Shown piece by piece: positions 6,326 to 62,673 of a stretch of DNA of 64,000 bases (position 1 is the stretch's first letter; each line of letters starts with the position of its first letter). Source of the DNA: Lytechinus pictus (taxonomy: Eukaryota); assembly GCF_037042905.1 (NCBI RefSeq), contig NC_087250.1, positions 12,464,001-12,528,000 on the forward strand, in the 5' to 3' direction. Made by a program: the position numbers and the translations under genes. The notes below the pieces were generated by a model. The model had not been told where the DNA came from and did no database searches. It saw nothing but the letters and a program-made list of their open reading frames with translations.

Positions 6326-7231
6326 GGCCCGTATTCTGAAGTCGGGTTTAACTTAAAGGAGAATGAAACATTTGGAACAAGATCGCTTGTGTGAAAACAG
6401 AAATATCAAAGAAACAGATCAACGAAAATTTGAGAAAAATCGGAAAAATAATGAGAAAGTTATGAGCATTTTAATATTGCGATCACTAATGCTATAGAGG
6501 TCCTCAAATTGGCAATGAGACAAAGATGCGTGATGTCACTTGTGAACAAGTCTCCCCATTACTTTAGTATATATTTCACTTAATAAATTGCCTCTTTTAT
6601 CACATGTATCAAGTAGATCATGTGTTCTTTCTATAGGAGTGCATGTAATACAGATTTTTAAAGAATACATCATGGATACAGAGTTTGTATCACCACAAGA
6701 AAAAGTAGAAAGATACATTTTGAGGGTATTTTATAGTCCATCAAAGGGAAAGTTGTTCACATGTGACATCACATATCATTGTTGCATTGCCAATGGGAGG
6801 ATCTCCATAGCATTAGCGATTGCAATATTCAAATGCTCATAACTTTCTCATTATTTGTCCGATTTTTCTCAAACTTTCTTTGTTCTTATTCTTTGATTTT
6901 TCTGTTTCGAAACAAGCCTACTTATTCCAAAGGTTTCATTCCCCTTTAAACTCAGGTTTTAAAGTTGTGGTTTAAGTATGAATAGCCAATTGTTACATAA
7001 ATCACTACCTGTAGAGATATATATATTTAAGCTCATTTGGCTCTCAAATCATTCATAATTGTCTAGAAAGTATGAATAGATGATTGTCTTTACCATTGAA
7101 AAAACAGGAAAGAGCACAATAAATATAAGAAACATACAACTTAATGGAAATTTTGACACTTTTGGCTTCCCATAATTTTAGCACAGAGTTAGACCATGAT
7201 CTAAGTTAAACCTGACTTCAGAATACGGGCC
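6326..7231. mobile_element. MITE family A (GGCCCGTATTCTGAAGTC TIR), interrupted copy
   Basis: TIR at both ends; homologous to 18426-18711 and 59599-59906 once 6357-6949 is removed. Confidence 0.88.
6357..6945. mobile_element. TTAA-flanked MITE (AGG...CCT ends, Kolobok-like) nested in family A
   Basis: TTAA at 6353-6356 and 6946-6949; long inverted arms starting AGGAGAATGAAAC / GTTTCATTCCCCT. Confidence 0.88.
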
Positions 7232-7910: not shown

Positions 7911-8328
7911 GGGTAAATTGCCAATTCGTCTACTGTCAACTCATCCACTCACCACATGGTCTACTTTCATTTAGTCTAATGCCATTTGGTCCATCAAAAT
8001 TTCGTCTAACAACCATTTGGTCCATTAACCATTTAATCCAATTATCATTACGTCTAATCACCATTTCGTCTATGACCATTTCGTCTCATAACCAGTTGGT
8101 CTAATATCCATTTCATTTTCATTCATTTTGCACAAAACACCTAGTCAAATTGGACCAAATGGTAAAAGGACTAAATGTCTATTGGACCAACTGGTTATTA
8201 GACGGAATGACATTAGACTAAATGAAAGTAGACCATGTGGTGAGTTGACGAACTGATGATAGACCAAATGATAGTAGACGAGTTGGCAATTGGACGAATT
8301 GGCATTAGACGAATTGGAAATTTAAGCC
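7911..8328. mobile_element. Palindromic MITE with short internal subrepeats
   Basis: Left arm of CCATTT(G/C)GTC(T/C)A-like units mirrored by TAGACCAAATG/TAGACGAA units in the right arm. Confidence 0.7.
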
Positions 8329-8750: not shown

Positions 8751-9349
8751 AATAGACCAGGGGCTCGTTTCATAAAGGACTTGCAACAGTTGTAACTTTG
8801 CCATTATGGCAACCACTATGGTAACCTCGATTCTGATTGGCTGCTGAGCCATGTTACCATGGTAGTTGCCATTATGGCAAAGTTACAACAGTTGCAAGTC
8901 CTTTATGAAACGGGCCCCAGTTCGATATTACCTCATGTACAATTTTGGTCAAATGACCTTTCATTTTTGACAGTATCATAGGCAGATTTCAAAGCAAGAT
9001 ATTATGTAAGCATGCCTTACATAGCAGGATGCATAAATTGTATAGACCAAGTGATTAGAATAGCACACCAACTCTTTGAAAGTATTTGCTGCATTTTTAC
9101 TTTGAATGCATTAACCAGTTGCTATAACAATGTAGGCCCTACTTGGCCTAATGTGAAATACCAGTCGGTAGTGGACGCATTGTTGTTGTTTTTTGTTTAT
9201 CTAATGAAAAACAAAAATCAAAAGAATGTATGAATAATCAAGACATCAAAGTTGGTGCTTATCTCATTAGATATTAAACCACCATGTCACTTTTGTCCGA
9301 TTGACCTTTTTCTGATCATGCGCAGAATGGAACTCTGAATTGGCTTATT
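8751..9349 (+). mobile_element. MITE family B (AATAGACCAGTTCG...CGAACTGGCTTATT), interrupted copy
   Basis: Homologous to 28789-29244 and 54035-54490; contains the insert 8761-8917. Confidence 0.85.
8761..8917. mobile_element. 157-bp palindromic MITE with CAG TSD (PIF/Harbinger-like)
   Basis: GGGCTCGTTTCATAAAGGACTTGCAAC / GTTGCAAGTCCTTTATGAAACGGGCCC; CAG at 8758-8760 and 8918-8920. A related degenerate copy lies near 32248-32408. Confidence 0.88.
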
Positions 9350-11702: not shown

Positions 11703-12365
11703 TCTTCAAAATAATTGAATTGGCAACGTCTTTTTTGGTATTCCAATATTCTCTCTTAGAGGCCTGGACCTATATTTTGAGTGACCTTTTAATATAATTT
11801 TGTTCAACTTGTATTTCAAAGATATTGATGAAGATTTGTCATGATCATGCATGGTAATCAATGATAAAAACAATCATGATATTAATAATAATAATATGCA
11901 ATCATTATAATTATGATGATAATGACAATAATGATAATAATAATAATGATAATAATACTAATAGTATTGATAAGAACAATGAAAATAATAAAAGTGATAC
12001 CAATAATAATAGTGATGAGGAGATGGCGGGTTGATCATAATACTCGGCTTCATGCAACAATAATTGATACAATCTAAAAAAAGATTGAGTAAAAATTTGC
12101 CCAATATTGGGTAAAACGGGAACAAGCATGTTTGATGCGTAATTTTTTCCCATCATATTGGGTAAAATGCAAGTTTAAAGGGTAAATTTGATTGCAACAT
12201 TGCGTAAAATATTTACAAAGTAAATTACCAAGCAAGCAACATTTTCCCATTTTACCAAATATCTTATGGGTAAACTGTTCTAGAGTGTAAATCGGGACGA
12301 TATCTTTGTCTACGATATAATCGTCTCTAAATAGAAGCGACGAAACAGTGACAGATTTTCTTTTA

Positions 12366-12604
12366 CACTGCAAAAACTCAGGTGTTGATTTAACACCAGC
12401 CCGGAATCTATATATGTCCACACCAGAAAAGTATTGAAACAACACCCGTTTGGAATCAAACCGATGCTGTTTTAATAATAATTGGTGTTGAATAAACACC
12501 TATCTGGTGTTAGACCAAAACCAAACTGGTGTAGTTTAACACTTCTCTGGTGTGGACATAGATTCCTGGGCTGGTGTTAAATCAATACCGGTGTTTTTGC
12601 AGTG
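12366..12604. mobile_element. CACTG-ended palindromic MITE, TA TSD (CMC/EnSpm-like)
   Basis: CACTGCAAAAAC...GTTTTTGCAGTG flanked by TA; internal AACACC/GGTGTT subrepeats. Confidence 0.85.
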
Positions 12605-14102
12605 TAAAAATGCACAGGCGAATGCGTGATTAATTCGCTCAGGAAAATTTATAAAGTTTGGCAGCTTAAAAAAAAAATCATTTGGAAAGAAAATACAATG
12701 TTAAAAAAAGTTATAGGATTTAGTTTAGGAGAATTAATGGTATTAAAACGGTTTTTCGAAGGGCTAATGGCCGCCCTTTGGCCCGTAGCAGAAAGAGTTG
12801 CAATCAATCGCAACTCTAACAATCATGCGTAACTTGATTTTTTTCAACCAATCAACAGCGCGCATTTGGGACTTGCGATTGATTTTTTGACTTGCGTTTA
12901 AACGCAACTCTTTCTGCAACGGACCCCTGTTGTGTAAATAAAATCATGTTTAAAAGACTTATACATTTACGATCGATGTTTATGCTTAGGACAATCAATA
13001 TTGTAATAAATTAATGCTTGTATCGAGATCGCCAATAATTGATGCCTTACATACAGTAAATATGTACAGTATGTATATAAAAATGTTGGATTTATCATGT
13101 ATATTTTGATTGATCGGCCGTATAAAATTTCTTTGTGTATCAGTGTAAACATCATAAGTGCAATATGTGCTGATATTTTGAAACAAGTAATAGCCTAAAG
13201 GAATTTGATGTTCTTTTGTATGGAATGTGTAAAATGGGCTTCCTTACTTCATATAAGTATAAAGGTTTAATTTTTAACGTGAGCTGTTTTTTTCATTTGA
13301 ACTTTTTATTTATTTCACTTGTCAAAGAAATACAAAAGTGCCTTAACCAGAAATAGCTATAGAGTTAGACCCTGGTCCGGTGCCTTATCAAAGTCAATAT
13401 AGTAGACTAGAGTTCGTGTGAACAGAAAATTATATTTTTACTTTTTCGTAGGTATATTGTAAATATAGAAAAGTGCCTCAAAAGACTGCCTTCAGAAAGA
13501 GATGCATGAATCTTATGGATAACCCATACGATCGTCATTCGATAGAGCATATATTTTCTTGGCTAAGTAACATAAAATCTTGTATTCTGTTGCCAATTTC
13601 AAAACAAATTCTGATCACTTTCCTAATCATGCTAATAGCTTTTCGAACTAAATTAAAATGCAACACTGATCTTAAGTTCTTGATTATGTGAGGTCACCAT
13701 TTTACACATCAATCTGAGTTGTAAAATATATATTTTTTTATTGATGGAAAATTATAACACACCTTAGAGATTGCCTTTTCTATAGATTATCGAAATCGCA
13801 AAAATAATGAAGGTTTGACGCAATTTGATGTGCATTGTAAGAAAGAGTTGTGCTGAATATAGGCAATTTTAAGATTATGTAATCCGCCTCAATTTTCCAT
13901 GCTCATCGATGAGGTTTTAGTTAAAAAGGAAAACTTATCTCTTCCTTTTTTTTATTAATTCAATCATTCTATTTTTTGGTACTTGAAATGTAAAATGTCT
14001 TCCCACAAATATATCATACCTATACTTCCAGCTAGCTGAGAAGTTGTGTATTGTCAGTGCGAAATTTGTATGACGTAACTATTTGTCAGTGCAGCTGACT
14101 AA

Positions 14103-21700: not shown

Positions 21701-22458
21701 GCAGTAGGATTAAGGCGCGGCATCCATTGGATAAGTGTTCTTTCCCCAGTCTTAATCGAAATCTACACCAACGATCAACTTGTTTCATTTAATTACCGGA
21801 AGCTTTCACTCCGTGGAAGACCTCGGATTTACAATTCAGACCAGCGATGGAAGGGAAAAACCCATTACATCATAGAAGCGAAACAGACAGCACATTATAC
21901 ATTCAGAGACAAAGGCTCAAGTTTGCACCTTAAATCAAATCCTTTCGTGAGTAACCTTGTCCTGTAAGTGGCGAAAGGGGAATAATGTGCACGTCGTATT
22001 TTTGTTATTTGAACCCAGAGATTCTCAGTGGAACAGCTATAACTGCAGAATATACGGGTACACGTAGCGGAAAAGATCAAGAGAGAGAGAGGGGGTGTTT
22101 GGGAGAAAAAGATACCAAGAGAAGCGAACAAAAGCAAGATCATCACTTCAAAACGTCATTGATTAGTCACATACTAATATAACAATGGAAACAAACAATG
22201 GAACAAAGGAAAATTTGATACATTTTTCTAAATTTCTTTATTCTTTTTTGTTTTGTTTAAAACCTTTCGTAATCGCTAACCTTCATTAAATCAGTCTAAA
22301 TTGTATAAACATCATGGGTGTTAGGTTCAAATTGGTTTGTACCAAATGAATTCAAGAAGCATTCATGGCGAGATATTGGTTAGATATGAACCTCCCGAAC
22401 ATATAAATGTATATGTGTGTGTGTATATATACATTTATATATATTTATATATATATAT

Positions 22459-22494
<36 letters not shown>

Positions 22495-22581
22495 GTATAT
22501 AAGACATCAGAAATGCGAAACAAATTCACGAGTAATGCAGTTTTTGAAGTGCCAACAATTAAGTTCTTTTATTCACTCTCC

Positions 22582-22638
<57 letters not shown>

Positions 22639-22971
22639 TCTATATATTGGTTTGCACTAATCATTGCTCGATTACTTCTTTTCAATGTTTTCATATATTT
22701 GCCCTCACTGGTCATTTTTTCCTATTTACACAATTGAATACACTATACAAAATTCATGACAAATGAGGGGGCCGTAATTGAATATATTGTATATTATTTG
22801 TGATCTTTTTATCAAATGCATTTTCAAATATGTCAAGAATTTGCTTGTTCCTACATATTTACGACCACATTTGAATAAATCAAAGTTAAATGTCATAACG
22901 ATGGTAACACGAACACAAAAATCATATATCAGAAATGAACGATTCGTGTAAGTAGCAAAGTATATATAACA

Positions 22972-23020
<49 letters not shown>

Positions 23021-23023
<3 letters not shown>

Positions 23024-23351
23024 AAAGAAATGAATGAAGAGAACAATGGTAGGCGTAGCTTAAATCAAGGTTCCCCAGAGCTATCTACCCTTGAGAAAAA
23101 TTGGTGATGCCGAAAAAATGTCTCTGCCGGGAATCGAACCCGGGCCCCCAGCTTTGAACGCCGGTGCCTTAACCACTAGACCACAGAGACAGGTTAGTGG
23201 CTAGGGCGACCCCGATCCGATTGACCGTCAGATAGACAGATTTTCGACACTATACCAATTATAATTTCCTTTGTCGGGTGAAGGTGGGTTTTGAACAATG
23301 ACAAGCCGCCATGCCTCAGCTGGATCAAAGCTATTGCTTTGATACAGTACA
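23021..23351. mobile_element. ~330-bp cassette carrying the TCA tRNA, inserted in a (TA)n microsatellite
   Basis: Complex sequence sharply bounded by long (TA)n runs on both sides; starts TGTA and ends near TACA. Confidence 0.5.
23119..23190 (-). tRNA. 72-nt cloverleaf tRNA (or tRNA-like gene) with anticodon TCA, short variable loop
   Basis: Minus strand: GTCTCTG TG GTCT AGTGGTTA AGGC A CCGGC GTTCAAA GCTGG GGGC CCGGG TTCGATT CCCGG CAGAGAC A. All four stems pair (two G-U), A and B boxes intact, TTTTTT immediately downstream. Confidence 0.75.
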
Positions 23352-23352
23352 C

Positions 23353-23403
<51 letters not shown>

Positions 23404-24449
23404 AAGTTAAGGTGTGAGAGTGCGTGTGCGAATGTGTGTAAAATCACAGCATATCGTCTCGTTTAACTTTTTTTATCCATACCGATAATAACAAAATAAT
23501 GATAATCTCGGGCAAAACTGATTCCCCCTTTAAGACGACAGCTATAAAATAGAAGAAGTACGGATTCGATTTTAACAAAACGTGCTAGGCATTAGAGCTT
23601 TGCCATTTTGGTAAATGTGCAGAGGGAAAACCCACAAGTTATTTATCTCCTGGGGGTTATGTTAATTTGAGGATGCCCTGTGTACCGGTGAGGACTAGAC
23701 CGCGCCTTGCCCTTTGCAAACTGCATCGATTTTTGGCTCTCCCACTCAGCTGAGGAAAATTGATTTCAATGTTCATCATGTCTCTCTCCCTCTCTCTCTC
23801 TCCAGGAAATTGATTTCAATCAATTTCTACAAACCCCCGGCCCCCCTCTCTGACTCTCTCTCTCCCGCGAAGGAAAATGTATGTCAATCTTCATCTTATC
23901 TCTCTGTCTCTTTTCTCTATCTCTTTCCCACCAAGGAAAGTTGATTTAAATCTTGATCATCTTCACCCTCCCCCCTCTCTCCCGCAAAGGAGAATTATTT
24001 ATATCAATCTTCATCTCATCTCTCTGTCTCTTGTTCTCTATCTCTTTCCCACCAAGGAAAGTTGATTTAAATCTTCACCCCCTCTCTGTTTCTCTCTTTT
24101 TCCGAAAAATTGTTTCCATGTTTATCATGTTTATCCCTTCCTCCCTCCCTCTCTCCAACCAAAAAAACTCTACCTTAATCTTTAGCATGCCCTTCCCCTC
24201 CCTCCCTCTCCCTATCTACCTATCTCCAATCCTCTCTTTCTCACCAAGTCACTTCCTCCCCTGTATTACCAAACTCAATCTCTCCTCCTCTATTCCGCTT
24301 ACTCTTCATCCTCTATCTCTACGTACACATTTGTTACATTTTCACCATGGGTGTTTGGTTAAAAGTTGTTCGTACCAAATACATTCAAGAAGCATTCATG
24401 GTGATCTTTGTTAGATATGAACCTCCCAACCATATAAATATGTGTGTGG

Positions 24450-24522
<73 letters not shown>

Positions 24523-24758
24523 TGTGTGTGTGTGTGGTGCTCTATAAATTAAGCGAACCCCACCAGAAAATATTTAATTGTGAAGTCTGGTGAAAAAATA
24601 CTACATTTAAGATAGTTTTTTTCTCTGCGCTTGCCAAGTATTGCAGTATTGTTGTCTATATTCAACACTCAGCATGAAAAAGCGCACCTTGTTGTGGGTT
24701 CATCAACGTTTGAGTACAACTCTGTGTGTCTGTGTGAGGGGTGTGTGTGTATATATGC

Positions 24759-24790
<32 letters not shown>

Positions 24791-24828
24791 TGCTTTGCAC
24801 TAATCATTTTTTGTTCTCTTTGATGTTT

Positions 24829-25076
24829 GCCCCGTCTTACAAAGAGTTGCGATTGATCCAATCAACCACAACGCCAATATCTATTATGCTCGTTTTTTCA
24901 AAATATTTTTTATGATGCATATTCATACATTCATTGTTTTCTGAAAAATTCAGTGTGCTTCTTTTTGTGTACAAAGGAGATTGAGCACATTTCCTGTACA
25001 AAAAATATGACATTGATGGCTTTCCATAGAGTTGAGATTGATTGGATCAATCGTAACTCTTTGTAAGACGGGAACC
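24829..25076. mobile_element. MITE family E (CCCGTCTTACAAAGAGTT TIR)
   Basis: Inverted ends; homologous to 50601-50873. Confidence 0.8.
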
Positions 25077-27080
25077 TGATCTCATTCATTTTTTTAATAA
25101 ATGAACCCTTCTCTGCACTTTCTGTCGTTTAATTTATTGACTTACTTTTCCCTACTCTCTCGCTATATATTCGCGTATACAAAGTTTACCGCGACTTGAA
25201 ATTCCTTTATTAGAAAAAGAAATATTTCAAATCCCAGGTTTTAGCAAAGGTCGCTTAATAAATTATCAATGACAAGAGCAATTTAATTGTACATTTGTTT
25301 GCTTTATAATATGGAATCATGTCTCGGTATGCCAACAGCAATGTTCCTAAAACATCCCCCCGAATCGCTTGAGATTCGCTGTAAGCCGAATACGTTGGAC
25401 ACAATTTTCTTTCTAAAAAAAAATCAATGTCAGCATATCTTCGTATGCATGCTCAGTGTTCATACATGTTACAAACGTCTGTTATATTACAACAACCACT
25501 TTGTATCGATAAAAAGAGATACAATGAAACAAGTACGCCGTCTACAATTTCCTCTAAATTCTGACTTAATGTTAGTGTGTTGTGACATTTCCAACAAAAG
25601 TTCCAACAAAAATTTTCGCGTTTGATTATTATTTGTATTTATTACGATTTAAATCCATTTTCTCTTTTTACTGAGCACATCCTATTCTTGGAATGGATGT
25701 GATGTTTTAAAATTGCCAATTGCTTCAGTTATATGCATTTTTTTTCATACGAAACTGATGAGGTAACCACAAATTGTTGTACTCTTATCACGTCCCTTTC
25801 CCAACTTATCTCTCGTTCCATCCTTCAGGCTAGCATCCTCCTTTTTATAGCTACTCTTTTTCCCCCTATCCTCCTAATGGTTTACTGAAGATTACTCGCT
25901 TATTCATTCAGTCAATTGTTTTAGCTTTATTTTTAGAAAAGTAATGTATCTTCCCGTTCCTCTTTTACCGTTTCAGGTGCAATATAAAGTGCTCCTACGT
26001 CATCGTCAATTCAACATCCGGCGAATTCTCCAATAACAGGTCTCTTCAACAAACAAGCCACAATTACGCGCTCTCTCTATCTATCTCGACCTGCATCAAC
26101 TTGCATTTCGAGCTCCCAGCTAGCTCTCACACACAGAGAGACGCACTCGCATAACGCCATACACGCGCACACACACACACACTCAGTCCAGCAACGCTTC
26201 CAACCCTACTGGAGACGACCGCATAAATAAGGGTCATCCAACGTCTGCTTCGATCGGGAGTTGATTAGGTGAATTTGCCCTCCGTTTGTTTTACGCCAGT
26301 TGAGTATTGAACGAATCAATAGCGGAGTTAGAGACAGCGGATGCATTCACCACTCGCTTGCATCGTGATCGTTTGTTACGGAAGCCAGTGTCCCGCCCTT
26401 GAAATACGGCCGGGTTGGGAATTCGCTTACTCTGAGAAACAGGCAAACTCATCCATTTGAAAAGGTGGAAAATGCATGACTGATTGTTCTCCCTTAGGGA
26501 AAAAATAGTGAGATACATTTGTGGAATTTTATAAGGGATGTGTATCAAGTGATTTTAGAAAAGGGATGTTCTCATGATGGATAGGTGAACAGCCCGCACT
26601 TGGCATTTTAAATAGTACTTTTTGAGGGAATATCCGGTTTGAATATCCGGGAAAGATCTTTCGAGATCGAAGAACTACACCCAAGAGGAATTATTTTGCT
26701 TTACAGGAGATACTGTTGAAACCTGCGCTGAACGTTATCTATTACTGCTATTTCCTCAAAGACAATAAGTTCGTGATTAAAAGTATAAAATAAAATCATA
26801 TGGGGAAACTTTTTCCGGTGGCAAAGGCGATTCTTCATATGTTAAGTAAAACAAACGACAATGGTTCCTTCAAGACATTTCAATTATTTCTGCTTGTATC
26901 ACGACCAGTGCTAGATACGGAGTAATCATAACAGAGAAACGGACACTCAAGCATCTGGAAGTTTCATTCAAACCTACAGAGCAACGGGAGGATACACTGC
27001 AATAATAAGGTGGTTGATAAAAGAAAGATCAGAAAGGCTTTGCCTAACGGGATTTTGACCGGTGCTTTCTGAATGTAACA

Positions 27081-28073
27081 ATGTCTCCAGGTCGTGACGG
27101 CACCCCAAGTGTTACACAGCTGAAGGACCAGAGATTGAGTGTCTACTGTTCGCCAAGATTCTGCAGGAGAAGTCGGTACCTTGAGAAAGCCTGCGTGAAC
27201 TCTATGCTGGAGAAGAAGGACGATTTCGGGTGGCAACGAGCTTTTAATCCGCGATTCTTCAGCAAGGGGTCGCCCTCGTCGACGCGCAAGGACGGGAAGC
27301 GCGCCATCTCTTCAAACGGGGCCAGTCCGCCGTTCCAGTGCCAGCGCCGGAAGTTCACCTCGCAGTCCACACTATCACATCTGTCGTCTTCAGACACCGA
27401 TTCGCTAGGGTGTACTAATCTAATGGCGAATCTGGATCTTAGCTCACCGAAAATCACTACCAATGACGCCGGCCCGGAAGAGGATAATCCATCGGCACCA
27501 GGCACTCCGACGCTGCTTCCAAAGCGACAAAAGCAGCGTCCCGTGTCTCTCGCTCTGCTCGACAACCACGCTTCGCAGAGTCTGGATTCGAATGCAAATG
27601 GTGAGCATCTTGGTTCGGCTTGTTGCAGTCTACACGTGCGGAAGGACCGCGCCGCCGACCGTAGCCCTGCCGGATCGGCTCGGGCAATTCCAACCTCTTC
27701 AAAGGGTCTGAACCCACCTTCCTATAACCCACTGAGCAAGTCATGTTCTGATTTGCGTGGGGGAACTATCGACGAATGCTGCATGATTCATCGTAACTTT
27801 AGCTGCAGGTGCCCCAGTCACCTCTCACTTCAGTCTGCGCGCGTATCTACGCCTTCAGACTCGCATACTGGCTCTAGAATAAGCCTTTTATCGGAAGGAG
27901 TTGACTCCTACGAGGGACTCTATGAAAAGGCCTATAGAGCCACGTACGTGATGGACAGGGACCGGCTGGTGAATGAGTCTAAAGTCTCTCCAGATAGACT
28001 GGTGCGGGAATGGTTAGCAAGACAAGAAGAAGTTACCCAGAATACACCAGAACAACAGGAAGTAAAACAATGA
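27081..28073 (+). CDS. Uncharacterised 330-aa Ser/Pro/Arg-rich protein, uninterrupted ORF
   Basis: 993-bp ORF, by far the longest in the window, visibly more GC/CpG-rich than its flanks, ACAATG start context, AT-rich sequence right after the stop. No domain recognised. Confidence 0.75.
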   Translation: MSPGRDGTPSVTQLKDQRLSVYCSPRFCRRSRYLEKACVNSMLEKKDDFGWQRAFNPRFFSKGSPSSTRKDGKRAISSNGASPPFQCQRRKFTSQSTLSHLSSSDTDSLGCTNLMANLDLSSPKITTNDAGPEEDNPSAPGTPTLLPKRQKQRPVSLALLDNHASQSLDSNANGEHLGSACCSLHVRKDRAADRSPAGSARAIPTSSKGLNPPSYNPLSKSCSDLRGGTIDECCMIHRNFSCRCPSHLSLQSARVSTPSDSHTGSRISLLSEGVDSYEGLYEKAYRATYVMDRDRLVNESKVSPDRLVREWLARQEEVTQNTPEQQEVKQ

Positions 28074-33375: not shown

Positions 33376-33670
33376 CGCGTCGTGGTCTAGTGGTTCTGAC
33401 TCTTGCCTTTCAAACCGAGGGTCGCGGCTTCGAATCCTAGCCATGGCGTGTTTTTCCTTCAGCAAGAAATTTATCCACACTGTGAGATGAATGAGTACCC
33501 GGTAGGAAGAAATTCCTCGAATGCTCGGGCGCCCGATCAAGGTAGCCGTGCTAAAGCCGGTGTAATAATAACATTATGTTAAGCAGGGCCCGCTGTTAGA
33601 ACAGTTTCCAGAACTGAAGTGGCGTCCCTGGGTAGAATACGACGTTATTATCATTATTATTATTATTATA
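33376..33670 (+). mobile_element. tRNA-derived SINE, near full length
   Basis: A box (GTGGTCTAGTGG), B-box-like CTTCGAATCC, central domain, LINE-like tail and (ATT)n end. Confidence 0.88.
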
Positions 33671-33719
33671 AACAGATTCTTGGAAAAGGCCCCTAATGTA
33701 GGATGGTGTAAAAATTACA

Positions 33720-34353: not shown

Positions 34354-37300
34354 TAGTCCAGGATAGAAGAGGCATAACCTTGTTTTTTTCATATATATAA
34401 TATTTTTTATGGTTTCTTGTCAGTTTGAGGGTGCTGATTACGAATCTAAATGATTCCACTCGCGTAACCTTGAGCATTTTCTGCAAATTGGCAAAATCCA
34501 ATATGGCAGCCAAAATATGTGAATTACCCATGGAAATCATAAAATCGCCCGGACATTGCCTATAAAATGCATGATATTGCGTGGCAAGAGTGAAATACTC
34601 TCTGAAAAAATAGTTTTTGACAAAATATTTATTTTCTGGATATTCAAAATGGCCGGCATAGGCCCATGTATACTCATTATGTACAATATGAATAGGGAAA
34701 ACCAATTTTCACATACATGAGCACTAAACTGCAAGAATTTGTGATCTATGAATGAAGTACTGTATGCAAATTATCATCACTAACGAGATATATTATTTAG
34801 TATGTCATGTATGAGAATATTGCTGTATTTTGATATTTAAAATGGCCGCCACTTGCCCAAACAATATTATGTACAATGGCAATGGGGGCCAAAAATTCAC
34901 AAGAGTGAGCACTAAAATGTATATTATTAAGATAAACGAGTGGAATACTGACTAAAAACATAATGTTTTAACGAAATATATTATTTAATATGCCATGTAT
35001 GTGATACATTGTAAATGTTGTATTTCGATATACCAAATGGCTGCCAAAGACCCAAACAATATTATGTACAATGAGAAAGAGGACCAAAGAAATCACAAGA
35101 GTGAGCATTAAAATGCATACATATGTGATAAAGTAATGGGATACTGTCTAAAAACAATTCTCAACGAAATATATCATTCAGGTTTCAAGTGTGTGTTAAA
35201 TACTGTATTTTGACTTTCAAAATGGCCGCCATAGACTTTGACTGTAGTATGTATAATGCGAACTGGGAAACCAATATTCCCAGTAGTGAGCACCATAAAT
35301 GCACGTAATAGTGATCCGTAAGAAAAATATTGTCTGAAAGCATGATTTCTAACAAGATATATCATGTATTCTGCCAGTTAGGTGACAAATATTGTATTTT
35401 GAAAGTCAAAATGGCCGCTACAGGCCCTAACAGTATGATGTACCATGTGAATGGGAACAATATGATTTCAACAGATTTTGGCTTTGCTTGACTGAATGGT
35501 GTTGTATGAGTAACATTACAGAGGGATAAAATGTATACACAAATAATGTTTCAGCGTTGATTCGCGATATTTTGTGTCAATTTCATGAATTATCGTTGTT
35601 TGAACATTTAAAACATCATTATAAAGTGAAAGGAATAAGCAAAACTTAATTTTCAGACTTACCTATGCAGTGGTAAGCCATGATGCACCCCTCGTCTACA
35701 TAATGGACCCCATCACAATATTCAGAGACATATCCATCTTTCAGAGAACAAAATTGATTTTTGTTGGCAAAAATAATGGTATCTGATATATCTATATCTA
35801 TAGTTCGGACTGACAATGTATATATATTTATATATTCCTAATGTTCAGCACTGCGATGGAAAGAGCTGGAAAACCGCTGTGACTCGAACAACGCACCGAC
35901 GTACACAAAAGCTCTGTCCAGCCATATATGTTGAATGCACGTCGAGTGTAGGTTTGCTCTTCGGACATCACTATCACAAAGAAAATCTCCTCTGATTTGA
36001 TGATAAAAGTGCTCTATTTCCTTATTAACCAATCCCCATGGTTCTTTCATGAATATTTACCTTACAATGTGCCCTTTATTATAATCTGAACGGAAATTCT
36101 TGATACCATCACCCACAGATGTGACGGCGGATATAATCCACCCGGGTACTATAAAATGTCCCCAAACCCATTATCCCAATACATATTCCTGACTTTGGAT
36201 GGTGTTGAGTGATTTTAATGTAATAAGTGCCATATTTCCCACCAATTGAATGCAAATAGAATTATGGTCATCTGATAGAAAAACTTGTTAACATTCATTT
36301 CAGGGGGACGGAAATTCTATTTGAATCAATGCTTGTCCTTGATATACATTTGTTTGTGAAAAAAGGGTATGATGCGAGGGAATTCTGCGTGTTATAAGGG
36401 TGCGCGCGTGCAGCGAGGACCTTCTGTTTGCTAGTTTTCCATATAATTACTAGTATATGCAATATTTATAGTCAAGCAAAGCCAAATTCTGTCAAAATTA
36501 TATTTCCCAAGTTACAATGTACATAATACTTTAGGACTAATGGCAGCCATTTTGGATTTCAAAGTGAAGCATTTATTACCTCCATGACCATTATGTGATG
36601 TATGTGTTTAGAAATCATGTTTAAGACAATATTTTTACTCGTACATCACAGTTACATGCATTTTATTACTCTCACTTTTGTGATTTTTTTTTATACGCAT
36701 ACAGAATTTAGTAAGGGCTTGTAGCGGCTATTTTGAATGTCAAAATACAGTATTTATCACCTACATGGCAGAATAAATGCTATAATTCATAAAAATTATG
36801 TTTTCAAATAATATTTTACTCATACAACAGGATCATATGGATGTCATAGTCAAGCAAATCCAACTGAATTCTTAAAAAATCATATGTCCCCATTTTATTG
36901 TAAATAATACTGTCAGGGCCTATGGGCCATTTTTAATTTCACAATACAACATTTATCTCATGCATGGCAAAAGAAATGATTTGTCTCGCTAGAAAACACG
37001 TTTTCAGACAATATTTTACTCCGGCGTAGATCACAATTACATGCATTTTATGTTTCTTACTCTTGTGAAAATTAGTTTCTACATTCGCATTATATAGTGC
37101 CTATGGCGGCCATTTTGAATTAAAAAATACAGCATTTATCACATATAGTACATGGCATATTGAATAATATACTTCGTTAACAATTGTGTTTTTAGTCAGT
37201 ATTCCACTCGTTTAATCGTAATAATATGCATTTTAGTGCTCACTCTTCTGATAGTTTGGCCCCCATTGCCATTGAACATAATACTGTTTGGGCCAGTGGC

Positions 37301-37807
37301 AGCTACTTTAAATATCAAAATACAGCAATTTTCCCATACATGACATAATAAATGATATATCTCGTGAGTAATGATGATTTGCAAACAGTACTTCGTTCAT
37401 ATACCACGATTTCTTGCAGTTTATTGCTCATTTTTGTGAAAATTTCTTATCCCTATTCATGTTGTACATAATAGAGTATACAAAGGCCTATGGCGGCCAT
37501 TTTGAATATCCAGAAAAAAAATATTTTGTCAAAAATTACTTTTTTCAGAGAGTATTTCACTCCTGCCACACAATTTCATGCATTTTATAGCCAATGTCCG
37601 GGCAATTTTGTGATTTTCATGGGTAATTTACATATTTTGGCGGCCATCTTGGATTTTGCCAATTTGCAGAAAGTGCTCAAGGTTACACGAGTGGCATCAT
37701 TCAGATTCGTAATCAGCACCCTCGAATTGACAAGAAACCATCAAAAAATATTGTATATATGAAAAAACAAGGTTTAGTCAATTTTCTATGGGGCCTATTT
37801 TGGACTA
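34354..37807. mobile_element. Non-autonomous foldback DNA transposon with ~1.1-1.3 kb inverted arms (Academ-like termini)
   Basis: TAGTCCA...TGGACTA termini flanked by TAT on both sides. 34354-35495 is an inverted copy of 36468-37807, and the arms are built of ~190-bp subunits. Confidence 0.85.
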
Positions 37808-43800: not shown

Positions 43801-45005
43801 AGGAGGCGGTAATGGTGATATTTTAGAGAGCTTTCGCACTAGCAACGCAGATATCAACAAAAACACAAGTGTGACTTTCACCAAAAATCGCGGCTATATC
43901 ACAATCTCTTTAATTATTGTTATTTCAACACTACACGGCATTTATTACCGTTAGGTCGTATGTTCAGATGAATTACAAGACACTGCAGAGAATATCTGGC
44001 GACAACAATATATCGAGTGAAATCTGAGTCTTCTTTAATCCATGGCGATTCGATGTGTCTCTTGGTAAGACGTTTATGCCATTGGATCGTGTCCTGAATT
44101 TTAGCAACCCCATGTGACGTATGACTAGAAAGAGAAATGGGTATGGAAAAATATATATATTTCACATTTTTTGTGCAGTAGGCATTGAATGAATGCTGTT
44201 CGAAATCATAGAATTCTGATTCTGAAAAGTATTGCCCAAAATCATGGAAATAGCATTCTTTAATGAAGCAAAATTGGCAACTCGCGATTTACAGAGATTA
44301 AAGATTATATTTAAAGATTGTGTTATATCCATATTTCATTCTCTGCTCTTATTACACAATTTATATTATGTAAAGAAGTGAGTTTTCATTGATTTCATGG
44401 TACAAGACTTAAAAAAAATGGGTTGTAACCTCTTCATTTTGATATACAATGATTACGTCCACAATTAAATGATTGATTCAGAATAAGAGTTCACCTCCTT
44501 CACCTCCCCCCCCCCCCCAACAACAAAAAAATCAACGATTGAAATGAATAGAATAGTGCAGGGTTTTGCTGGGCAACATACAGATGATTTAAGAACGGAG
44601 AAAATGTATTGTCTAATGCTTATTCATGACAAACAACAAAGAAATCTTTGTCAAACACCTGTCTTGCCCTGAAATCTGGATACACGAAATACTTTCATTT
44701 TCCTTCTCGTTAGCTTTGAAACCGAAGACGGAACCGCTTTTCCGGATCACCTATTTTTTTCTACAAAGACCTTCCATCTATCCTGTGTCATTTAACGGGC
44801 ATTGTCAAGACATTACTATGTTATTGAGCCTTATACATGTAGGCCGCAGAACGAAATAAACATCCCTATTATATACTGTGTTTCAAAAGAAACTGATCAA
44901 ACAGATTCAAACGGTTTCCAGACTATCACCCTCTTACCGGGGCATCTCCTGGGGGATATTTGTGTGACTGTGTTATCGTTCCAGTCATTTGAAGTTTGAT
45001 GTTAA

Positions 45006-45605
45006 AGGTCAAGTCCACCCCAGAAAAATGTTGATTTGAATAAATGGAGAAAAATCGAACTAGCATAGCGCTGAAAATTTCACTAAAATCGGATGTAATA
45101 TAAGAAAGTTCTGAAAATTTCAAAGTTTCGCTTATTTTTTTTACAAAACAGTGAGATGCATAATTCAATGAAAAGCAATGATGTCTTTCACTCCTTATTT
45201 CTTTTGGTTTTTGTTGTTTGAATTAGGCCCTATGCAATATTTCATTTTTTACATATTTGACAATAAGGACCAACTTGACTGAACAATATCGTATTAAACA
45301 ATGCTAATTCCACATGTTCAGGGATGAATTAATCGTTGTTTCAAATGACAACGAGGAGAAAATTAGAATATTTCATATTTCATTTAATGAAATAAAAAAG
45401 AAATAGTGACTGTGGATGACGTCATCAGTCTCCTCATTTGCATACCGACCAGGATGCACAAATTGCTTTTTTTGTGAAATTAAGCAAAACTGAAATATGT
45501 CATAACTTTTTTATTTTAATCTGATTTGATGAAATTTTCTGTGTTATGCTTGTTGGATTATCTCTTTTTATTCGAATTAACGTTTTGTCGGGGTGGACTG
45601 TAACT
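45006..45605. mobile_element. MITE family F (TTAA-AGGTCAAGTCCACCCC, Kolobok-like)
   Basis: Homologous to 61590-62192 in opposite orientation; fragments also near 14680-15000 and 42993-43192. Confidence 0.8.
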
Positions 45606-58616: not shown

Positions 58617-58795
58617 GGGGGCGTCGTGGTTTAGTGGTCACGACTCTCCGTCTTTCAATCAGAGGGACGTGGGCTCGAATCCCAGCCATGGCGTGTTTTT
58701 CCTTCAGCAAGAAATTTACCCACATTGTGCTGCATTCGACCCAGGTGATGGGAATGGGTACCTGGAAGGATCTATTCCTTGAATGCCTTAGCGAC
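58617..58795 (+). mobile_element. tRNA-derived SINE, 3'-truncated copy of the same family
   Basis: Shares AGCCATGGCGTGTTTTTCCTTCAGCAAGAAATTTA with the 33376 copy; a further fragment lies near 60290-60360. Confidence 0.85.
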
Positions 58796-61090: not shown

Positions 61091-61589
61091 GTAGGAAGTT
61101 TACTGTTATTAGGACACAGGTTACTTTTAACATGCTTTGCAGAGGATGTCCCAGACCTAATGTGTTACGTTAAGAAAAATAGACATGAATGCTATTTTCA
61201 TTGGGGCCTACATTTTTGCTGGGGTAGTTCACGCACGGTCTTTTTGAAAAGGTTATATCGTTGTATGTTTACCCAAAATCTCGAGGCATCTCTTTGGATT
61301 GTGAAGATATAAATATTCTCATTTTATTTCACTACACCTACAGCGTGATTTTAAAGTACCAAGATTAGCTGTCTAGAGCAGGGGCCGCGGAACGATTTTC
61401 AAAGTGGGGGGGGGGGGGGTGCTGACCATGCAAAAAATCACAATCATACGGTCATTTTTACGTTTTGTACACGGTTTTGGAAAAAAGTGGGGGGCTGGAC
61501 CCCCCCCCCCCACTCGCTTTCGCGGCCCCTGTAGAGAGTGATAAAAGCACTAATTGAAATAGAATTTACGATAAAGAGCGGTTGGTAAA

Positions 61590-62192
61590 AGGACAAGTCC
61601 ACCCCAACAAAAAGTTGATTTGAAAAGAAGGAGAAAAATCCAACAAGCAAAACACTGAAAATTTCATCAAATTCGGATGTAAAATAAGAAAGTTATGACA
61701 TTTTAAAGTTTCGCTTAATTTAACAAAACAGTTATATGCACATCCTGGTCGGTATGCAAATTGGCAGACTGATGACGTCACCCACTCACAATTTTTTTTC
61801 TATTTTATTATATGAAATATGAAATATTCTAATTTTCTCCTCCTTGTCAAGTGAAACAAAGTTTCATTTCTCCCTGAACATGTAGAATTACCATTGTTTT
61901 AACAGTTTATGGTTAAGTCAAGTCGGTCCTTCTTGTCAAATCTGTAAAAATTGAAATATTGTATTATTGAACAATAAAAAACAAAAGAAATAGTGAGTGA
62001 TGGACATGATCGACTCTCTCATTTGCATATCACTGAGTTGTGCATTTAACTGTTTTGTTAAAAATAAGCGAAACTTAAAAATGTCATAACTTTCCTATTT
62101 TACATCCGATTTCGATGAAATTTGCAGCGTTAAGTTTGTTTGATTTTTCTCAATCGATTCAAATCAGCAATTTTCTGGGGTGGACTTGACCT
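61590..62192. mobile_element. MITE family F copy
   Basis: AGGACAAGTCCACCCC...GGGGTGGACTTGACCT-TTAA. Confidence 0.85.
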
Positions 62193-62673
62193 TTAATGGA
62201 AAGTTTGTGTGCCTAGTAACCGACCTAATACGTTGTAAAACATTCCCGGGGGTTCATTTGCATTTTATTAGGAGCAGGTTCAATTAAAGGTATGTTTTTT
62301 TTTTCCAGGAAAAGAAAAATTATTTGCCCATTTACCTGCACAATTGCCAAAGAAAGTCACGAATACGCTGCAACTTAATGGGCAATAATCTCCGTAAAAG
62401 CGTTCTAAAGCAAAAGGACTTGCGCGATCTCCAGGATACCACACGAACCTGGGGCCTGTAGCATGAAATAAAAACTCTCAGACTGGCATTTTTTTGGCCA
62501 GTTTTCACTGTGTTATTGTCAATGGCATAATTTTGTTCGCCAGAGTTGTTAATTAATTGCCAGAATTTTTTTATGGCAAAATGCATCAGACCCCCTGGTG
62601 ACTTCGTGCTCGTGTGCAGCCACGGAGCATGACCCTGAGAAGCGCGGGGTGCTGGGGATGCTTACGCGCCCCC

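Follow-up and report, generated by a model that had tools for sequence, protein, structure and literature searches.

A tRNA-bearing repeat inserted in a TA microsatellite of the window (by which we mean the whole 64-kb stretch of DNA that was analysed) is probably a ~400-nt non-autonomous retroelement that depends for its copying in trans on a Penelope-like element (PLE) with TA preference, of the Neptune, Naiad or Hydra type; it is retrozyme-like, but no hammerhead is seen in it. Far more tentatively, we propose that it may be a ribozyme-less, retrozyme-like, Penelope-mobilised RNA parasite, in which the tRNA gene and an antisense copy of it would constitute a conformational switch, masked in the long template and open in a short Pol III product, with host tRNA-processing enzymes either replacing the hammerheads or being kept off the template. 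The boldest form of this proposal, in which the short RNA would undergo maturation and act at UGA codons, is very improbable. The predicted masking of a tRNA by its own antisense copy is the new point of the present analysis.

The cassette in its TA tract and its family

In the first-pass annotation the cassette had been described as some 330 bp of complex sequence embedded in a microsatellite, with a central tRNA gene and a hairpin upstream of it on the minus strand, and all of this is borne out. Complex sequence occupies 333 bp (23021-23353) between two TA tracts that are both 100% pure (Table 1), the minus strand holds 163 nt on the 5′ side of the cloverleaf and 98 nt on its 3′ side, and the hairpin ATCAAAGC-aata-GCTTTGAT lies at 23324-23343 with pair probabilities of 0.92-1.0, extendable to 23320-23347; its one common variant (23340) turns an A-U into a G-U pair and keeps the pairing. 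The cassette starts with TGTA at 23021, TACA ends at 23351, and two more non-TA bases, CG, follow (23352-23353). TGTA and TACA had been taken for the ends of the element, a view that does not hold, as the window copy extends beyond TACA into the family continuation. Comparison of the flanks for a target-site duplication (TSD) of 4 or 5 bp (ATAT/CGTA and TATAT/CGTAT) gave no match. The last bases of the left tract (ATAT) and the first bases of the right tract (TAT) also match the family continuation, and both junctions are TA microhomologies because the family sequence there reads ATAT or TAT. Isolated in a pure TA tract and with microhomology at either junction, the window copy is a sub-monomer that lacks the spacer of about 55-66 nt present in other copies. 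Within the 64-kb window, neither a second copy of the cassette nor a convincing match to the spacer motifs was found.

Table 1. Features of the cassette and of its borders, in positions of the window
Feature	Position	Strand	Basis
(AT)23 tract, left target side	22975..23020	.	repeat purity; loose ends before 23021-23029
336-nt piece of the ~393-406-nt unit	23021..23356	-	loose ends 23021, 23024 and 23356; RNA joint 23356->23017
3′ arm (tRNA sense), little-varying partner of the 5′ arm in a long rod	23021..23112	-	folding, depth
T6 run directly behind the discriminator base	23113..23118	-	sequence
72-nt class I tRNA-shaped gene	23119..23190	-	ARAGORN, Rfam, pairing check
Anti-tRNA leader	23192..23238	-	alignment and duplex against shuffles
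5′ arm of the rod, partner 23051-23118	23239..23319	-	folding; outer arms alone z=-3.8, 0/60 shuffles
Stand-alone hairpin	23320..23347	-	folding
(TA)23.5 tract, right target side	23354..23400	.	repeat purity; family continuation

The TA tracts around the cassette look like repeated landing sites. Two segments on either side of it, 22310-22690 and 24343-24830, are paralogous (87% over 184 nt, plus a matching stretch past a second TA tract), and their TA tract is split by different inserts, at 22502-22581 and 24522-24750, respectively.

Among public runs, 19 of the 24 listed hold at least half of the sampled cassette words, and four were aligned to the cassette at 80% likeness, namely three of contigs (X4, X16 from organism C and X17 from organism D) and one of RNA (X24, 12.9 million records); organism B and the metatranscriptome X20 were left out of the counts. 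Matching contigs number 8181 in X4, 779 in X16 and 24 in X17, and 2036 RNA reads match in X24. Outside the last two bins the summed depth in X4 is 0.3-1.3 million, whereas the divergent contigs that are listed singly have 17-46; as overlapping contigs inflate it, summed depth does not equal copy number, and "thousands" is the safe reading of the abundance. The X17 contigs have a depth of about 100-560, the words are almost missing from two runs of that sample, and these copies are possibly carry-over and not the mark of a second host.

The extent of the unit can be read from the loose ends. At 23356, where depth just inside is about 480, 304 RNA reads together with 44 X4, 4 X16 and 2 X17 contigs enter one AT-rich spacer, and on the left side two sets of RNA reads (150 and 80) and contigs from all three contig runs continue into another sequence. 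The TGTA region reads three different ways among the loose ends listed, so the left end is not constant. Furthermore, 84 RNA reads with 36 different starts join 23356 back to 23017; since these reads are 150 nt long and place 42 nt on the shorter side, the spacer can measure no more than 66 nt, and with two 30-nt loose ends that do not overlap, the unit comes to about 393-406 nt. The units are arranged head-to-tail, or are circular, genomic tandems and a circle giving the same RNA junction; the head-to-tail junction is also supported by the DNA contigs, which in each of the three contig runs show the shared spacer on either side. One part of the original interpretation is supported, namely that the element is non-coding and TA-associated, exists in many copies and contains a Pol III unit of its own; the alternative offered with it, a solo terminal repeat, is not supported, because the left end varies and many copies continue into the shared spacer and the next unit.

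The left half is covered more deeply than the right in all four runs, with ratios of 1.54, 2.02, 2.34 and 1.81 that are confounded by a possibly greater divergence of the right half; the 3′ arm, which includes a T5 run at 23096-23100, has 1.5-2.3 times the depth of the other end. The RNA library is not strand-specific. Half of the family RNA reads run on into other sequence, so that passive read-through may account for much of the RNA. Among the RNA reads no point was found at which many molecules start or stop, for which 150-nt cDNA reads are a poor test, and such reads are unable to show a 75-nt RNA. Reads ending in TA are indistinguishable from run-overs, and insertion into TA is seen directly for one copy only.

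A subfamily that is scarce in the DNA run, marked by 23123 and other sites within 23053-23340, is abundant among the RNA reads, the T>C change at 23123 being present in 47% of the X24 reads against 0.5% of X4 depth; this subfamily represents either another population or a few expressed source loci. Truncated copies occur, in which 19 X4 contigs stop matching at 23092 and some keep only the left 70 nt, and single-locus RNA reads stop at 23088, 23256 and 23312. In X16, near-fixed differences are found at six sites (23204-23281), all of them 5′ of the tRNA; in the rod, four of these are unpaired, one keeps its pair and one breaks it.

The tRNA-shaped gene and its antisense leader

The gene matches Rfam family RF00005, the best match of its clan, at 60.9 bits (E=5.3e-12; gathering score 29), and is the sole tRNA called by ARAGORN in 64 kb (score 120, anticodon TCA). 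Its cloverleaf has stems of 7/4/5/5 bp in which 21 of 21 pairs are standard or G-U, and a 4-nt variable loop; the A box lies at about 23172-23183, the B box at about 23130-23140 and the UCA anticodon at 23155-23157, and the bases G32, U33, A37, G1:C72 and A73 are present. We take the T6 run behind it to be a Pol III terminator-type signal. tRNASec possesses a long variable arm and an extended D stem and acceptor-T domain. Identity as tRNASec was rejected on the 4-nt variable loop, the 4-bp D stem, the 7+5 bp and RF00005 as best match, and the "SeC" label given by ARAGORN derives from the anticodon. The UCA anticodon is held in common with tRNASec and opal suppressor tRNAs, from which the gene differs in its class I body, short variable loop, 4-bp D stem, G32 and residence in a repeat.

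Reference tRNAs were drawn by a two-box pattern from at least 133 metagenome loci, which represent mixed eukaryotes of unassigned identity, an uncounted number of matches too near a locus end being excluded from scoring. The 145 scored matches among the loci listed comprise 118 Glu (CTC 65, TTC 53), 25 Gly(TCC) and 2 other tRNAs, and no TCA. The flanks of the cassette were found at none of the at least 133 two-box loci among the matches listed, and the exact tRNA patterns had no match in viral contigs or metagenome contigs. Among the matches listed, Gly(TCC) shares 17-20 of the 38 columns outside the pattern, compared to 11-17 for TTC and 7-15 for CTC, and it has G1:C72, A26 and A73 in common with the cassette tRNA. 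The latter thus appears by sequence to be closest to tRNAGly(TCC) among the matches listed, from which TCA differs by one change, and a Glu origin by register shift in the loop is possible. The Gly acceptor pairs C2-G71 and G3-C70 are lost in the cassette tRNA, and its G32 occurs in none of the 52 distinct natural reference tRNAs with the same boxes, among the matches listed. Most likely the UCA anticodon is an inherited change from Gly(TCC) that was amplified with the repeat and has no decoding use.

Among 40 of the 75 variant rows a single one falls in the tRNA (23123, U-A to U-G), and no variant of at least 5% lies in it among all 11 places in X16 and all 6 in X17; for X4, 25 of the 27 variant places are listed, and the other two could in principle fall in the anticodon. 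Variable sites amount to 1/72 in the tRNA against 31/261 in the rest (P=0.0055), yet there is no difference from the 3′ flank (3/98, P=0.64), and in X4 alone, with both unlisted places assumed to lie in the tRNA, the contrast is 2/72 against 19/261 (P=0.27). Selection on the cloverleaf therefore rests mainly on the 21 intact pairs, since the contrast with the 3′ flank is absent and X4 alone is insignificant.

The minus strand of the cassette folds better than its shuffles (z=-5.85, 0/100), and the plus strand also folds well (z=-4.7), as would be expected of any inverted duplication. The minimum-energy fold contains no cloverleaf, and upstream bases pair instead with the D arm, the T stem and the 3′ acceptor strand. 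The leader responsible is a degenerate inverted copy of the D arm and of the T arm with the 3′ acceptor strand, without the anticodon arm. Its alignment with the tRNA scores 30.5 against 17.3±3.5, and the duplex of the two has -51.3 against -36.8±4.4 kcal/mol, each equalled in 6 of 2000 shuffles; the 3′ flank as control gives a duplex of -27.8 kcal/mol, as against the -51.3 of the leader. In the long RNA the leader is predicted to pair with about 40 tRNA bases. For the window copy the computed masked fold is better than a forced cloverleaf by 23 kcal/mol, and it is favoured by 21-30 kcal/mol in all six versions computed, namely the window copy and five with run-common substitutions, for which linkage was assumed and indels were ignored. 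When the transcript ends at T6 and holds 0-10 leader bases, the acceptor stem is computed to form with a probability of 0.97-1.0 and the D stem weakly (about 0.2), and with 15 or more leader bases the acceptor stem is lost.

The outer arms pair independently of the leader (z=-3.8). Variation is densest in the leader, with 17 sites in 60 nt, and the sparing of rod pairs is modest to weak, 13 of 39 being broken against 16.8 expected (P=0.07) and 6 of 24 against 9.9 (P=0.025). Inverted duplication alone would give a masked fold without function, and this by-product, together with the variability of the leader and the modest sparing of pairs, counts against a selected leader switch. A use of the leader as primer-binding site (PBS) for its own tRNA was rejected, as inspection by eye found no TGG opposite the CCA end.

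If the leader switch were real, a retroelement could carry a perfect tRNA in a template uncut by RNase P and RNase Z, and the family would be a simple system for the processing of hammerhead-less Penelope-type RNAs. In practice, such a family is a source of numerous spurious "Sec/suppressor" tRNA calls in a genome. Charging of the short RNA would mean that a selfish repeat changes how its host reads stop codons, which nothing here shows.

Proposed mobilisation of the repeat and its alternatives

As a passenger of a Penelope-type element, the repeat would be copied from the tRNA-sense strand as template. The long RNA, multimeric or circular, would arise by read-through, because T6 would stop Pol III right behind the tRNA. 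Reverse transcription would be primed at the AU-rich 3′ end on nicked (TA)n and would stop at variable points, which would make the window copy a sub-monomer; the depth polarity in all four runs has the direction expected of 5′ truncation, with the divergence of the right half as a possible confounder. In the long RNA the leader may pair with the tRNA and the unit form a rod, so that RNase P and RNase Z, which cut at the ends of tRNA (PMC10275265), would be kept off the template, and the A and B boxes would give a separate short tRNA-like RNA.

As described by Craig et al. (2021, PMC8557442), Naiad and Hydra prefer (TA)n and form partial tandems with 5′ truncation, a TSD can often not be recognised, the insertions of non-autonomous Chlamys derivatives are arranged head to tail, and a sea cucumber is the listed source of a Hydra with (TA)n preference. 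The retrozymes of animals, some 170-400 nt in length, are highly self-paired and tandem, with neither PBS nor polypurine tract (PPT) (Cervera and de la Pena 2020, PMC7229834), and have been argued to be PLE derivatives (Li, Clavereau and Pollet 2026, 10.64898/2026.07.22.740005). No helper was found nearby: none of the six frames at 16-30 kb matches a reverse transcriptase (RT) or GIY-YIG family, no transposase sequence occurs there, and the one match of a Pfam scan of the same region, to CoV_NSP7, lies below threshold (18 bits, cut-off 25) and is put down to chance. A shared PLE 3′ end was also not found, five of six short motifs having no match in the available part of the Craig supplement of PLE consensus files, and the sixth having a single 10-mer match there inside an unrelated GC-rich sequence. 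The hammerhead core CTGAnGA...GAAA is absent from 21.5-25.5 kb, where the spacer is only partly visible, and a search of Rfam up to E=10 gave no ribozyme family.

The best-surviving rival, itself unlikely, is a satellite or DNA-level repeat (rolling-circle, Helitron-like or by unequal exchange) derived from an inverted tRNA-gene duplication, with the rod as by-product and the tRNA as passenger. Head-to-tail junctions, good folding of both strands, the terminal hairpin close to one end and the lack of a helper in 16-30 kb all suit such an origin, but it has to contend with the isolation of a sub-monomer whose two junctions with a pure TA tract both show microhomology, with the depth polarity of all four runs, and with 21 of 21 tRNA pairs being kept though the stems differ from those of the closest natural tRNAs, among the matches listed. 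Helitrons have a CTRR end after a hairpin, and the lack of one behind the hairpin here speaks against Helitron-type spread.

A shade less probable is the idea that the tRNA module replaces a ribozyme, RNase P and RNase Z cutting the multimeric RNA at an unmasked cloverleaf into unit-length template, with the leader setting the frequency; it is compatible with the Penelope-type passenger and differs in the purpose of the tRNA. It would account for the intact cloverleaf, free of variants of at least 5% at all X16 and X17 places, for the two mutually exclusive computed folds and for the missing hammerhead. Cuts at both tRNA ends, however, would remove the tRNA from the template, the lead of 21-30 kcal/mol held by the masked fold means that little cloverleaf is predicted in long RNA, and the reads, a poor test at 150 nt, reveal no site where many molecules begin or end.

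Improbable, by contrast, is a Helenus-type terminal-repeat retrotransposon in miniature (TRIM), in which the 331 bp from TGTA to TACA would represent a solo LTR, and the spacer a short internal region flanked by LTRs on either side. Its TG...CA-like ends, the internal tRNA followed by a T run and a length near that of the largest Helenus LTRs (321-323 bp in the available text of PMC10886601) fit, and LTR-internal-LTR would yield the same junction reads. Against it stand the lack of a TSD, the spacer bases that the window copy has beyond TACA, the inconstant left end among copies, and the first and last 30 nt of the spacer, in which inspection by eye found neither a TGG-type PBS nor a polypurine tract on either strand. 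Moreover, the available part of PMC10886601 includes no echinoderm Helenus, and the A-box 10-mer of the tRNA has 0 matches in what is available of its supplement.

The suggestion made at the outset of an element-encoded recoding system, in which the repeat would supply a working UGA-reading tRNA to an autonomous partner with an in-frame UGA ORF, is not sustained and must be regarded as very improbable. All stems are paired, the A and B boxes, U33, A37 and terminator are canonical, the anticodon is not among the variable sites listed, and the short transcript is predicted to retain its acceptor stem; clam and spider Naiads do carry in-frame UGA (PMC8557442). Those Naiads, however, use SECIS and selenocysteine (PMC8557442). 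Selenocysteine needs tRNASec, whereas the cassette RNA, with its 4-nt variable loop and 4-bp D stem, lacks Sec architecture. It further has G32, found in 0/52 natural tRNAs with the same boxes among the matches listed, the Gly pairs 2-71 and 3-70 are lost, a single change separates TCA from TCC, efficient opal suppressors in thousands of copies would be expected to do harm, and no partner ORF (RT, GIY-YIG or transposase) is seen within 16-30 kb. Just as improbable, and largely refuted, is an atypical tRNA-derived SINE, which has for it the tRNA with Pol III boxes, the high copy number and a weak resemblance (73% over 56 nt, E=0.017) to the tRNA-derived head of a genuine SINE elsewhere in the window, and against it the layout, recognised from the beginning as unlike that of a standard SINE, with a central tRNA, a T6 stop directly behind it, 163 nt of family sequence 5′ of the tRNA covered in all four runs, no simple-repeat tail of its own and units that join head to tail via a spacer.

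Related elements and other sequences in the window

Among known systems, non-autonomous Penelope-like derivatives (Chlamys MRC1-type, with Naiad/Hydra helpers; PMC8557442) share with the cassette partial tandems arranged head to tail, high copy number and non-coding sequence. The window copy further resembles them in lying in a microsatellite with no clear TSD, and the family in an apparent 5′ truncation that may be a mark of divergence in the right half. To this the cassette adds an intact tRNA cloverleaf and an antisense leader, which are not described in that part of PMC8557442; the word tRNA occurs once in its main text as available. To autonomous PLEs no sequence link was found when motifs were compared with the available published consensus files. 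Animal non-LTR retrozymes (PMC7229834; 10.64898/2026.07.22.740005) similarly have a unit of a few hundred nt in tandem and monomeric copies, are highly self-paired and transcribed, and are without PBS or PPT, but the type I hammerhead, their defining feature, was not found in the cassette or in the visible part of the spacer, and a tRNA module is present. Helenus/TRIMp3 (Kojima 2024, PMC10886601) resembles the cassette in its TG...CA-like edges and in a tRNA-like Pol III unit that is not terminal and has a T run behind it; the cassette departs from it in having no TSD and no visible PBS or PPT, in its unfixed ends and in its insertion into a TA tract; in Helenus fungal consensus LTRs, unlike the cassette, the tRNA lies near the 3′ end. 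No tRNA-bearing, TA-targeted tandem element of such a kind is described in the paper listings searched, and the family may be catalogued in Repbase or Dfam.

An ordinary tRNA-headed SINE is present in the window in two copies, 33376-33680, which ends in (TTA)n, and 58620-58729, 85% alike over 109 nt, and its heads, which also have TTCAA in the loop region, give a slightly better alignment to Gly(TCC) than to Glu. This SINE2 and the cassette have in common tRNA-derived A and B boxes and a head nearer to Gly(TCC) than to Glu, and the cassette differs in its central tRNA with the terminator behind it, its tandem spacer and its rod fold (z=-5.85 against -1.2 for the SINE copy).

Long imperfect palindromes at 6353-6949, 61588-62194, 8752-8926, 12361-12609 and 7914-8324 are probably MITE-like DNA elements, and 45002-45599 is related to 61596-62196. 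An open frame of 341 aa on the plus strand (27048-28073; frame searched 27048-28070), within a G+C-rich island, is probably a host exon; it had no relative among 3560 candidate proteins of 598-2000 aa and no Pfam match. Finally, a 195-bp tandem repeat forms two inverted blocks, 34376-35493 and 36468-37774, that are about 79% alike.
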